Shown: in pieces, positions 6,001 to 12,000 of the stretch | Numbering within the stretch: the first letter of the stretch is position 1 | How the letters are laid out: each line of letters begins with the position of its first letter | Assembly (NCBI RefSeq): GCF_003334335.1 | Contig: NZ_QOWQ01000001.1 | Source of the DNA: Escherichia coli | GTDB lineage: Bacteria > Pseudomonadota > Gammaproteobacteria > Enterobacterales > Enterobacteriaceae | Length of the DNA: 64,000 bases | Direction: 5' to 3' (one strand) | Position numbers: made by a program

Positions 6001-9000
6001 TCAAAGCCACCCAGCAAACCTGTAGCCAGCGGTGTGTGTGTGGTTTTGTCCAGGTTATCTTCTTTATACTGGTCAACACCAAACAGAATAGATGCTTTTT
6101 TGTCTGATTTTATATTACCATTGACCTAGGCATAATTTTGAGCCTTTAACGTGGCACCATCTTCTGTCATATTATATCCATCTGACATATAGATTGCCGG
6201 GCTGTATTTATTATTTTCTGTAGGGGTGCCTGTTAATGTCAGGGTTCCGGCCAGTTCAATAGCTTTATCTACATACATTTTTCCCTGGGCGGTAACAGTA
6301 GCTCCTTTGTTGATAATCAGGTCTGTATTAATTAAGGATAATGCACCAGTCATAGTAACAGTTGATTTATCACCAACAGTTATTTTGCTGTTTTGAGCAC
6401 TCAGACTGCCGTTGAAACTACTTTCGCCTGCTGAATCCCCGGAGCGAAGCTGTTGTCTGAATCCAAAACCTTCGCCAGTAATGTTTCTTCCTGAGAACAT
6501 GTCAATGTATGCAGTTTTATTTCCCAGAACAATTTGAGAGTTTTTAGCCTCTATGTGTCCTTTTACATTAGCATCCCGGCCTATACTCAGGGTTGCGTTT
6601 TCTAAATTTAATTTCCGGAAATTAAATTTACGACTTTCCCAGTCGGGCTGGGAAAAAGAGGCTATCTGATTGTTGGACTTATATTCCGTATTGTAACGTT
6701 TATTTACAGTGCTTTCCTGGTCCTTTATGGCAGCAGAATAGTCTTTTTGACATAAAAAAGGAATTGGACAGTTGTTATTGCCTTCTTTAAATATGGCATG
6801 TTCTGTCGCATGTCCTTGTAATGTTAACTGTGCATTCCGGACAGAGATATCGTTTTTGATATCGACTGAGCCATCAAAGATCAGATTGGCATTATTGTTA
6901 TGTTGCTGGGTAGTATTGATAATATGATTTATGCTTATATTACCTGATACATTCCCATGGTACATATATGCATCAGTATTAGTAAGTGATAATGTTGATT
7001 GCTTCACGTTTGAGTTCGTTACGGTTGTTCCCGCATCTGTTGCTGCGATTTTCTGAAATGACTGGTCATAGCCGTTTAGATCCAATGTTCCGCCATTTCT
7101 GGTAAAATAGATTTCGCCATTACCGCTTTCGCTTAAAGCGTCTTTGGCATTTATTTTTACCGTACCTTTACCTCCGGCCATGTAAATTTTATTGAAGGCT
7201 TTTTCAGCACTAAGGATGACAGTCCCATTACCTATTTTAAGGTTATTTCCCTGTGCTATTTTTACATCCAGAGTACCACTGCCTATTTTATGCAGATTAT
7301 CTCCGGCAACGCCCTTAACATTCCATTCAACGGTGGTATTATTATCAATATCTATCCCGGCACCTTTATAAGACTTATCTTTTCCGTACACTTTATATGT
7401 CTGGTTCTTATCGAATATAAGCCCGCCAATGCCAAGATCGGTATCCTGCTTGAGCGTTAATTCCCCTCCTCCTGAGACAGACAGGTCCTTATCTTTTATA
7501 ATCGATGATAACTCTTGTTTTTTACCATCCAGCTGCATAGTGTTTGTGAAATTCTTTTTTAAATTGTTTACCAGAATATTATTAAATAACGAGTAGTTTG
7601 TCCAGGCTATATTGGTACTACTGATAAAACCAACTGTACTGGTAACACCATGGAAAACCCATTTTTGTTGTTCTTTATCATATAGATAAGAACCAGAACC
7701 ACTATCGCCAAAAATTGGTGAGTTTTTAAAAGGGGTTCTGTTGGTATAAATGTAACTCTTGTTTTTCCAGTCCAGATTAAAAAGACTTGCGCTTAACAAG
7801 TCGGGATTATAGTTTTGTCCAAACAGATATTGTTTGCCGTTTAATATCGTTGAGGTTGTTCCGGCACCTGCTCTGAAGCCAATTATTTGTTCCTTACCGT
7901 TGTAGTTTACGCCATATCTTTTCATCGCATCTTCGGGAGAAAGTGAGAAGTCGGCACTCTCCGTAACCCCTGTTGTTTCCACGACGAATTTATTCAGACG
8001 ATGAACCGAAAAGTCGCCAGATGATACTCTGTTACTTGCTTTATATGCTGTCTGATCCCATGACTGTGTTGTTATTGCATGATGCTGTGTACCGTTATGA
8101 GTCGCAGTAACACTGTACGCACCTCCAATTGATGTTGTTGCACCTTTGTTGGAAACAGCAGAAAAATCAGGTACAGGTAGTTCTGGAAAATGAAATATCT
8201 TTCCATCTTTCATCATTAATTGAACATTTGTTGCACCCGGTCTGAACTCTCCTCTGTTTTGAGCAAGGTCAAGATAATCGCGGGTCCATATATTATTTAT
8301 ATCCAGCATTGCTGCAAATGCTGTTTCGCCATAACTTCCATATATTGAGGATAAAATAATACCGAGGATAACTTTCTTTCTTGATGTACCGACACTAACT
8401 TTCCGGGTCAGTTCAGAAACAGCAACTAATCCACCTGTAATATGACTATATTTCAGTGAATAAATTTTATTCATACGTGAACTCCGATATTTCTGAGTTG
8501 TGGTTATGGGATAGCATTTAATTACAACGGGGAACTATCAGTCATGGTACGTAACTGATAAGGGTATAATGATAATCACTGTCAGTTATATTTGTATGAC
8601 AGATGTAACAAAATGAAAAAAAAGATAAGCACAAGTGATTGATTGGTTAGATATTGATCACTTGGTGTTTGTATTTTGAATTTTGTGATCAAAATTTGAT
8701 CTTTGTTGTTTCCGGTCAATCCTTTACAGGTTTTCTGTATTATCCGGGGGAGTTAAGTCTGTCGATGTCCGACAGACTTTTGATGATGGAAACAACATAC
8801 AGCGATAATGTGCATGCTGTTTTGCAGGTGGAACTCAGAAGGTGAACTGGAACTGTGCGACCGCACCGTAAGTGTTGTCCGTGCCGATCAGGCCTGCAAC
8901 ATCAAGGTGAACCACATCAAACGGTGAGATCCCCACCCCGGCCGTGAATGCACTGCCGTCGTTACCGGCCAGATTCTGACGGTAACCGGCGCGCAGCTGT

Positions 9001-12000
9001 GCCCATTTCCAGGCATTAAATTCTGCGCCAATGGCGGCAAACTGACGGTTGCTGTCGGAGGTGAAACCGCTGGCCGGGGTCAGATCCACATCAAATGCGG
9101 TGGTGAACATCGCGTTGTGCCAGGAGACACCGGCCGTCACCTGCGGGCGGATCCTGAAGGTTTCCGTGATACCGTTCACTTCTTTTGTCTCAATACTACG
9201 GGGGATCAGGTTCTGTGCGACCAGTCCCAGCGTCCAGTTGTCATCCAGGTCCGTACTGGCACCGATGTCGGCGTTGATGCCATTTTTCGTGTTGTGGTAG
9301 CGGTCGCCTTTGAAGGCGCTGCTGTCATAATTTCTGACCAGCACGTTGTAGTTGAACAGGTCGACGCGCTGGAATTTGGGGGGGAAGCCCAGAGACCATT
9401 TCTGCCCGGCCGTTTCCAGTTCCGTAGCCAGAGCAATACCCACATCAGTGATCAGTGCCGCGCGGGCAAAGGCCTGTGATGTCAGGCGGCTTTTGTCCAC
9501 CTCCTGCCCGGTGCTGTTTGCCACCTCTTCCAGGTAAGTGAGGTCAGCATCAGAGACTTTACCGTCGACACTGACGGTGCCGTGTGATTTAACCATCAGT
9601 GCGGCAGAGAGGCGATCACCGGGAAGGGCCGCCACAGCAGAAACGCCCAGCTGTGCGGCGGCATGTGTGTTACGGAAGTCCCGGAGGTGTTCTTTCAGGC
9701 GTGCGGCAGCCTCAGGAACACCGTGGTTACTTTCGATGGCGCGGTCGAAGGCCTTCCACTCATCACTGATCCGGTCGGCGTTGTCGGTGATATTATCCGG
9801 ATTGGAGAGCTGCGCGCCGACGGACGGAAGCAGGATGCTGGGCTCATGCGCGACGCAAAATCCACGATGTATATATCAGTACTAAAAGCGCGACGGCGGA
9901 AGAAGCTCTGAAACTAATCGGTGAACTGTACGCCATAGAGCACGATATACGCGGGTTACCGGTGTCTGAACGCCTGGCGGTCAGGCAAATGCAGAGTAGA
10001 CCGCTCCTGACTTCCCTGTATAAGCTGATGCAGGAGAAAGAACACACGTTATCGAAGAAATGTCGTCTGGGAGATGCGTTCCGGTATATCAGGAAGCACT
10101 GGGCTGCGTTGTGCAACTTCTGTGATGATGGCCTGGCTGAGGTAGATAATAATGCAGCAGAAAGAGCGCTTCGTGCAGTCTGTCTCGGGAAGAAAACTTT
10201 TTCGAGGATCACTCATTCCGTGTCTGACTGCTTCAGGGTTTAATTTTGCTTCTGCTGACTGAATGATGATTGGGCAGCAAGTGCAATATCCCACATAAAT
10301 CCAGTCAACTCACGAGCCACCGCCGTAATGGCTACTTGTGATTTTTTCCCTTTTGCTGTCAGAGTTCGGTAACGAGAACACAATCGTTGTTGAGCTTTCC
10401 ATGCAATATCTTTGGAATATTGTGTTACAGAGTCCGGTCGGTAATATATAAGCCATGCTCCAACTTTTGCAGGTGTACGATAAGACCAGGCGGCTTCGTA
10501 AAGCAGACGTCTCAGTTCGCTGTTTCCAACTTTTGTTATTCCTCTGGGACGAATACTGTTTCCACTGGAATATTCACCTGGCACCAGTCTGAGGTGTACT
10601 GGCAATAGCGGACACTACCATTTGTTCTTTTTTTAAGCAGTCATCTGATGATATTTTTCCCTGAAGGCTGCCGGGGAGATATTCCCCAGACGAGAGTGAC
10701 GACGCTGACGATTGTAGAAAATCTCAATGTATTCCCGTATTACTGAGATGGCTTCATCCCGGTTATTAAAACGATAGTGGCTCAGGCTCTCATTTTTCAG
10801 CGTTCTGAGCCTCTGATTCTTCCGGACAGAAGATAATCATGTCGGTATGAATGTTATAATTAAGGACTGTGCAATAATAGCCATTCCATTCAGCCATCTT
10901 ACGCTCGAAAACGATCGGTAAGATGGCTACTCACCATTCCTGCTCTAAACCTGACGCCTCTCAAGACTATTATAAATAGCCTCAATCTCACCCTTCAGGT
11001 TATCACCGCAATAAACCATTGATGTATCGTATCGTTCATATCGCGCTTCCCGTGTCGCACTAAACCAGTTGAACGATCCCACACACAGCAAACCATCATC
11101 ACCAATAACAATTTTGCTATGAACACGGTTTACCAGCTTTGTAGCAATACCCAGCGCATTCAGTTTCTCCAGCGCCGCTTTAAAGTTCTGCTGCTTCTCT
11201 TTTCGCTTCTCAAAATCATTATGTTCAGTGTTGTAGCTTCTGTCAGTGACTATCGTGACGTTAATTCCACGTGAACACGCCGCAATCATGGAATCAAGAA
11301 AACCGGTTTGCTCCAGCCTTTGCCAGGTCAGCCATGGAGAAATTATCGTGATGTGTTTACTGGTATTTTCAAATGTCTGATTCAGGAAATTATCATGTTG
11401 CTCCACACCATGAAGTGTGTAGATTTTGGTCCCGGCGGTTTTTAAATCCTTACGCTCTTTATAATCAAAAGAGAGCGCATTCTTCTCTGACTCAAAGAGG
11501 TATTTTGCCAGTAATCCCCGTGGCGATGAGGCTGGCTGGACCTCAAACAGGTCCATATCGCCGAAGACCAGAAAACTGTCCTTCGCACGGGAGACTGCAA
11601 CATTCAGCATGCTGTTATCGCTATCAATAAACCCGCCGTCTTCATGTTTTGAATAGACTGGCGAGAATATCACAATCGCTCTTTCCGCTCCCTGAAGAGA
11701 GTGCACGGTGCCCACTGTGAGCGACTTTTCATTCGTGCCTGTACTGATACCTTGTTTGCCCAGCACCTGTTTGATAGTGGATACCTGAGCGCTAAAAGGC
11801 GTCACAATACCGACAACTTCATGAAGCGATTTACCGTAATGCGCTTCAATATTTTGCTGGTTCTCTGCCAACCAGACCGCTATCGTTTCAGCCTCAAGCA
11901 AATTATATCGACTTCCACTACTTGCCAGCTCTCCTTTACCATCAATATGGAGATACCCCATTGCGGGCATTAAATTGCTCTCTTCACGCCCTCTTTTAGG

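Follow-up and report, generated by a model that had tools for sequence, protein, structure and literature searches.

A 5'-truncated traF gene joined to the interior of an IS66-family transposase gene upstream of sigA in the pheV island of Escherichia coli

The traF remnant and its intact parent

The 64,000-nucleotide stretch of Escherichia coli DNA analysed here in its entirety, hereafter the window (NCBI RefSeq assembly GCF_003334335.1, contig NZ_QOWQ01000001.1), carries next to the tRNA-Phe gene pheV a genomic island in which an open frame on the minus strand, ending ...AVAQFQFTF, lies upstream of the SPATE (serine protease autotransporter of Enterobacteriaceae) gene sigA and in the same orientation. 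The original prediction, made from the sequence alone, had placed this frame correctly with respect to its SPATE neighbour and had described it as the remnant of a larger outer-membrane barrel gene, conjugation- or adhesin-associated, truncated at its 5' end by a fragment of the insertion sequence (IS) IS66. Translation placed the stop codon at 8835-8837 and the closest in-frame stop upstream at 9876-9878, so that the frame does remain open beyond the GTG at 9635 taken as its start, but up to 9875 rather than to about 9842 as first proposed. In the list of open reading frames (ORFs), GTG 9635 is the earliest ATG, GTG or TTG of the frame and gives an ORF of 266 amino acids (aa); none of these three codons occurs between 9875 and 9635.

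The translated frame matched the Pfam family TraF_2 (PF13729) with an E-value of 1.5e-63 and 214.9 bits over positions 19-264 of the 264 in the model, which leaves its first 18 unmatched. This score, taken together with 98.5% DNA identity to an intact gene, means that the resemblance is not due to chance. Window positions 8835..9840 (minus strand) align with nt 198-1203 of the intact parent, that is with codons 67-400 and the stop, and are thus the 3' five-sixths of traF, an outer-membrane barrel gene of a conjugation module. The 334 complete codons, close to the 335 or so expected from the prediction, contain no internal stop or frameshift, and the C-terminal aromatic residue is kept (...QFQFTF). 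The remaining stretch of open frame, 9843-9875, is antisense IS66 sequence that by chance holds no stop codon.

When 5,426 complete E. coli genomes were searched by megablast, identical loci were found in many strains, and in these the NCBI Prokaryotic Genome Annotation Pipeline (PGAP) records a pseudogene equivalent to window 8835..9839 as 'conjugal transfer protein TraF; incomplete; missing N-terminus'. The pseudogene status is therefore already known from public annotation, and the biological weight of a remnant so labelled by NCBI is small; what is added here is its parent with the surrounding integrative conjugative element (ICE), the precise join at a microhomology and what the deletion means in terms of protein structure. 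A scan of NCBIfam returned only sub-threshold PorV/PorQ and BamG matches that are unusable for membership (47 bits for PorV_fam against a cut-off of 90). The TraF of the F plasmid, a periplasmic thioredoxin-like pilus-assembly protein, was considered and rejected, the Pfam scan giving TraF_2 and PorP_SprF only; that both are called TraF is due to the lettering of tra genes and is coincidental, the description line in Pfam notwithstanding.

The search for a full-length parent led to a 400-aa TraF, of which 66 residues are missing in the window. The closest intact copy, WP_000979995.1 of E. coli S19-651 (7804-9006 of the retrieved locus), differs from the remnant at 15 of 1006 nt; those of strains SCU-171 (WP_062867567.1) and GPEC1210 (WP_001696721.1), also 400 aa long, are 95.4% and 82% identical to it at the DNA level. 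All three alleles are preceded by a type-IVB pilus operon, pilV, a shufflon, an rci-type integrase gene and a hypothetical gene of ~820 bp. The pil-shufflon-rci-traE-traF position is thus present around the three intact copies and missing in the window, where fragments of IS66, IS110 and IS3 elements lie upstream. More distant homologues, all annotated TraF, occur at ~1,170 places on E. coli plasmids, one group being ~82% and a larger group ~70% identical to the remnant in DNA sequence. The size and gene order of intact traF fit the IncI1-type traE-traF-traG region (traF of R64 and pESBL), and a 1,203-bp TraF is listed between TraE and TraG in pESBL (PMC4288162). In transposon sequencing of this IncI1-like plasmid, intact TraF was scored as non-essential for transfer, with a non-essential probability of 1.00 (PMC4288162), and for this reason the label 'conjugal transfer protein' is positional and not a demonstrated role.

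Junction with the interior of an IS66-family transposase gene

The sequence that adjoins the remnant upstream, on the opposite strand, belongs to the transposase gene tnpC of an IS66-family element, as had been predicted. It is an internal fragment without either end of the gene or of the IS, and PGAP annotates it in an identical locus as 'IS66 family transposase, missing N-terminus and C-terminus'; the piece next to the junction matches intact IS66 tnpC at 97 of 98 nt. In a three-way alignment, identity to IS66 runs from 10199 down to 9823 and identity to traF starts at 9840, which leaves an overlap of 18 nt that reads CAGCATCCTGCTTCCGTC in the window and in IS66 and CAGCCTTCTGCTTCCGTC in traF (16 of 18 positions matching). 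Because both diagnostic mismatches of this overlap follow IS66, the crossover lies within 9823-9833, where the interior of tnpC and traF have in common the 11-nt sequence CTGCTTCCGTC. By chance, a random junction would show an exact overlap of 11 nt with a probability of roughly 3e-6. Neither an IS end nor an inverted repeat or a target duplication was found at this junction.

The IS66-family sequence at the break and the several other IS66 copies in the same island could suggest that traF was broken by ordinary transposition of such an element at codon 66/67, the IS having decayed later. The join, however, falls at tnpC nt 1050, about 1 kb from either IS end and therefore devoid of a terminal inverted repeat, and the microhomology would have to be accidental. 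Moreover, the 5' part of traF, to be expected beyond an inserted element, is absent from the locus, its place being taken by remains of IS110 and IS3 elements and by a helicase gene. We consider this explanation very unlikely. Since the join lies in the tnpC interior at an 11-nt microhomology and not at an IS end, the truncation is best read, from the alignments, as the product of illegitimate recombination, or of a deletion mediated by microhomology, in which an IS66 copy and traF took part, rather than of a simple insertion; this refines the predicted truncation by an IS66 fragment and otherwise leaves the prediction standing. The locus would then offer a clean example of a gene truncated through a microhomology deletion against the interior of an IS.

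The same junction was present in all 42 E. coli records spanning the whole query, including 55989 and the O104:H4 outbreak lineage, and in two further E. coli records with an extra IS inserted at 9862. The 48-nt sequence across it, GCGCATGAGCCCAGCATCCTGCTTCCGTCCGTCGGCGCGCAGCTCTCC, was exact in the 10 truncated loci checked, and every one of 8 further public assemblies carrying the 266-aa ORF contains it. We give no credence to an assembly or chimera artefact restricted to the sequence analysed here, the junction being identical in 44 independently finished E. coli chromosomes and in these 8 additional assemblies. The truncated copies are at least 99.5% identical, which points to a recent event. 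The exact 266-aa ORF was found on at least 1000 contigs; among its source names are 'putative plasmid transfer protein [Shigella sonnei]' and one from Shigella boydii. The block made of truncated traF and sigA (traF'-sigA) is the same as in O104:H4 and 55989 (99.6% identity), and Shigella-named records share the 266-aa ORF. As the marker of a single event, the junction could be used to trace sigA islands among enteroaggregative E. coli, O104:H4, uropathogenic E. coli (UPEC) and Shigella-named records and to tie them to an ancestor of the ICEEc8 type, described below. A literature search, whose coverage did not extend to the original paper on the she pathogenicity island, added nothing on this ORF in that island.

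In two strains (e.g. E. coli O121 strain 201805972, locus 2367-4909), the IS66 fragment is itself broken at window position 9862 by IS2-/IS3-family elements, indicating that IS activity continued at this hotspot after the truncation of traF.

The missing N-terminal segment

The 66 residues absent from the remnant comprise a Sec signal peptide and an N-terminal segment with an Asn-Pro-Ala (NPA) motif. The parent begins with MMMKKHITRTLVASAVLFSFNSAAA, a typical Sec signal peptide whose hydrophobic core reaches a maximal 10-aa hydropathy of 2.36. NPA occupies residues 53-55, within a conserved DAR..AMGG.GVAS...NPALL stretch upstream of the breakpoint at codon 66/67; a family alignment of 105 sequences shows an invariant P54 and conservation of at least 90% for N53 and A55. 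Searched without a profile, a set of 1.84 billion representative proteins yielded 1,206 relatives at E<=0.001. Among the 150 matches listed, 103 belong to the full-length class (~370-450 aa) and almost all of these match from query residue 1-36, a lone later-starting one beginning at residue 45. No complete homologue starting at the position of GTG 9635 with a signal peptide of its own was thus encountered, the closest intact copies being 400 aa long and provided with one. The TraF_2 family is large, with 1,206 clusters at 50% identity, and its actual role seems unstudied.

With the 105-sequence alignment as input, AlphaFold2 gave a model of the parent with a mean predicted local distance difference test (pLDDT) score of 92.3 and a predicted template modelling (pTM) score of 0.87. 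Secondary structure assignment by DSSP gave short helices for residues 27-66, a first beta-strand at residues 67-78 and ~13 more strands up to residue 399, so that in the model the breakpoint coincides exactly with the beginning of the barrel and every strand (residues 67-399) is encoded in the remnant. When this model was compared with the Protein Data Bank (PDB) by Foldseek, the top matches were TodX, TbuX and FadL (E-values of 1e-9 to 1e-6, template modelling (TM) scores of 0.48-0.56), followed by BamG and PorV complexes. The list includes the FadL mutants 'delta NPA', 'N33A' and 'P34A', and from the names of these entries NPA can be recognized as a studied feature of FadL. The N-terminal segment of FadL forms a hatch that plugs the barrel. 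The parent model may resemble FadL, TodX and TbuX in its barrel of ~14 strands, in the helical N-terminal segment before strand 1 and in the NPA at 53-55. The likeness to FadL and to PorV and BamG, the latter two of Bacteroidota, is at fold level only (10-14% sequence identity, TM score ~0.5), and phmmer found no match to the parent among PDB sequences even at E<=10. The parent is best described as a FadL-like barrel, and its predicted fold suggests a FadL-like channel; this likeness concerns the parent only, the remnant being without the N-terminal NPA segment. An NPA-bearing, FadL-like model for a TraF family that is dispensable for pESBL transfer would provide a testable lead on its function.

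Since the remnant lacks the signal peptide, the NPA segment and a usable start codon, it would be unable to reach the outer membrane or to fold there, and a functional outer-membrane product is not plausible. The prediction had already remarked that neither a signal peptide nor a plausible start is left. As implied by older Shigella annotations, the 266-aa ORF from GTG 9635, or a longer product, might nevertheless be an expressed, shortened protein with a new function: its frame is intact over the 334 codons, and gene calls with its exact sequence exist on at least 1000 contigs. Automated gene calls are, however, not evidence of expression, and PGAP marks the remnant as a pseudogene. In the parent, the residue equivalent to GTG 9635 is number 135, which lies in strand 2 of the model barrel (residues 125-138), so the product of this ORF would be without the first strand, most of the second and the NPA segment. 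The N-terminus of this product, MAALPGDRLSAALMV, has a maximal 10-aa hydropathy of 0.86, as compared to 2.36 in the parent, and no signal-peptide-like core. No Shine-Dalgarno motif is visible upstream of GTG 9635 when the sequence is read by eye, and a promoter and terminator scan gave no promoter-like site on the minus strand in 8400-10300, its counts being at or below shuffle expectation and as such uninformative. We regard a shortened protein with a new function as extremely improbable, and a barrel that is expressed and functional without its N-terminal segment and signal peptide is a far less likely reading than the capture of sigA from an ICEEc8-like element considered below.

Source of the traF-sigA block and the surrounding island

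In S19-651, the order is pil operon, shufflon, rci, hypothetical gene, traF and sigA, the last directly downstream of traF, and the surroundings form a complete ICE of 70-80 kb at tRNA-Phe (pheV). It carries TIGR037xx ICE proteins, TraD, a conjugative ATPase, STY4528-/STY4534-type replication proteins, pilL-V and an integrase. This element corresponds to the published ICEEc8, an 86.5-kb element at pheV in which sigA is accompanied by genes for conjugation and for a type IV pilus (PMC6455142). An intact traF-sigA arrangement occurs in about a dozen genomes of E. coli. The PGAP product names suggest an MPF_G (mating pair formation, type G) or SPI-7-like backbone for the ICEEc8-like elements with traF. 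The remnant and the TraF of IncI1 plasmids and ICEEc8-like elements share the family and the C-terminal barrel with its aromatic end residue; unlike them, the window copy is without residues 1-66 and without its native neighbours pil, shufflon, rci and traE.

The window and the S19-651 ICE have in common one colinear block of 5227 nt, 4614..9840, which is 98% identical in the two (the features of the locus are collected in Table 1). After 9840, the next DNA shared with S19-651 is chromosome, from 16370 on, and no DNA similarity to the ICE was found on the side of the integrase and helicase genes. The possibility that the whole island is a decayed S19-651 ICE was rejected on these grounds. The pheV island is, as far as DNA comparison can tell, an IS-ridden mosaic of which only 5.2 kb are ICEEc8-like.

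Table 1. Features of the traF'-sigA locus and its surroundings in the window
Feature	Position	Strand	Basis and remarks
sigA (SPATE)	4617..8474	-	PGAP 'serine protease autotransporter toxin SigA' in identical loci; amber at codon 783, 6126-6128
traF-sigA intergenic region, carried over with both genes from the ICE (predicted)	8475..8834	-	Colinear block with the S19-651 ICE
traF remnant	8835..9840	-	Pfam TraF_2, parent alignment; unambiguous traF sequence at or below 9822
Recombination junction (predicted), exact 11-nt microhomology common to tnpC interior and traF	9823..9833	.	Three-way alignment of window, IS66 and traF
Internal fragment of IS66-family tnpC (ISEc43-like), nt 1050-1426 of 1614	9823..10199	+	98.7% identity over 377 nt to intact tnpC
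Chance continuation of the open frame, antisense to the IS66 fragment	9834..9875	-	Non-traF, without start codon; translation, junction alignment
IS debris: IS110 (ISEc45-like) fragment and IS3-family fragment	10200..10803	.	Between the IS66 piece and the helicase gene; coordinates converted from identical-locus annotation
AAA/phospholipase D (PLD) helicase, 1,171 aa	10945-14460	-	AAA_11/AAA_12 helicase domains, C-terminal PLD-like nuclease domain (PLDc_2)
Island tyrosine integrase, 420 aa, next to pheV	14912..16174	-	ORF; PGAP 'tyrosine-type recombinase/integrase'
tRNA-Phe (pheV), attachment site, also used by the S19-651 ICEEc8-like element	16372..16447	-	ARAGORN

These observations can be assembled into a sequence of events in which an ICEEc8-like element inserted at pheV would have carried sigA as cargo, immediately 3' of traF; such an element is proposed as the source of the traF'-sigA block since traF belongs to the backbone of the pil/tra module, in plasmids as well as in ICEs. 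A single ancestral event would then have joined the interior of IS66 tnpC to traF codon 66/67 at the 11-nt microhomology, by RecA-independent illegitimate recombination or deletion, with loss of 197 nt from the 5' end of traF and of everything upstream of it (pil genes, shufflon and rci), so that the 5.2-kb traF'-sigA block was left in a mosaic island. The remnant most likely persists only through its physical linkage to sigA and the upstream region of that gene and through the recency of the event. We hold this explanation as a whole, namely a non-functional traF relic of ICEEc8-like source, cut by one microhomology event and maintained by linkage, with high confidence.

Several points weigh against it. 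The direction of transfer is deduced, and alternatively the ICE may have picked up traF-sigA from an island. Older annotations name the 266-aa ORF from GTG 9635 a 'putative plasmid transfer protein'. Finally, the 334 codons are free of stops and frameshifts, and the 13 codons that differ between the remnant and the S19-651 parent, 6 synonymously and 7 non-synonymously (one of the latter, codon 68, being IS66-derived), are too few to show relaxed selection. Because these counts cannot test selection, non-function is argued from the parts that are missing, and decay is deduced rather than observed.

On a wider scale, we lean slightly towards regarding the traF'-sigA junction as a fossil, according to which the sigA genes of 55989/O104:H4, UPEC and Shigella-named islands would all derive from one capture from an ICEEc8-like element followed by horizontal spread, the toxin gene having first been ICE cargo and having then been stranded by a single deletion.

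The sigA copy of the window deserves a separate comment. Strains EC2 and S19-651 have an intact sigA of 1285 aa, in comparison with which TGG at codon 783 is changed to TAG (window position 6127); only 4 nt differ from EC2 sigA over 3,858 nt. Unless the amber codon is a sequencing error, secretion of SigA by this strain is improbable, because the product would stop within the passenger, without the autotransporter barrel. Beyond sigA, the near-identical strain EC2 has iha, the aerobactin operon and several copies of IS66. On the other side of the island, the 1,171-aa helicase gene adjoins the integrase gene and holds the same position in E. coli and Shigella-named loci; with its AAA and PLD-like domains, it could be a candidate defence-type gene.

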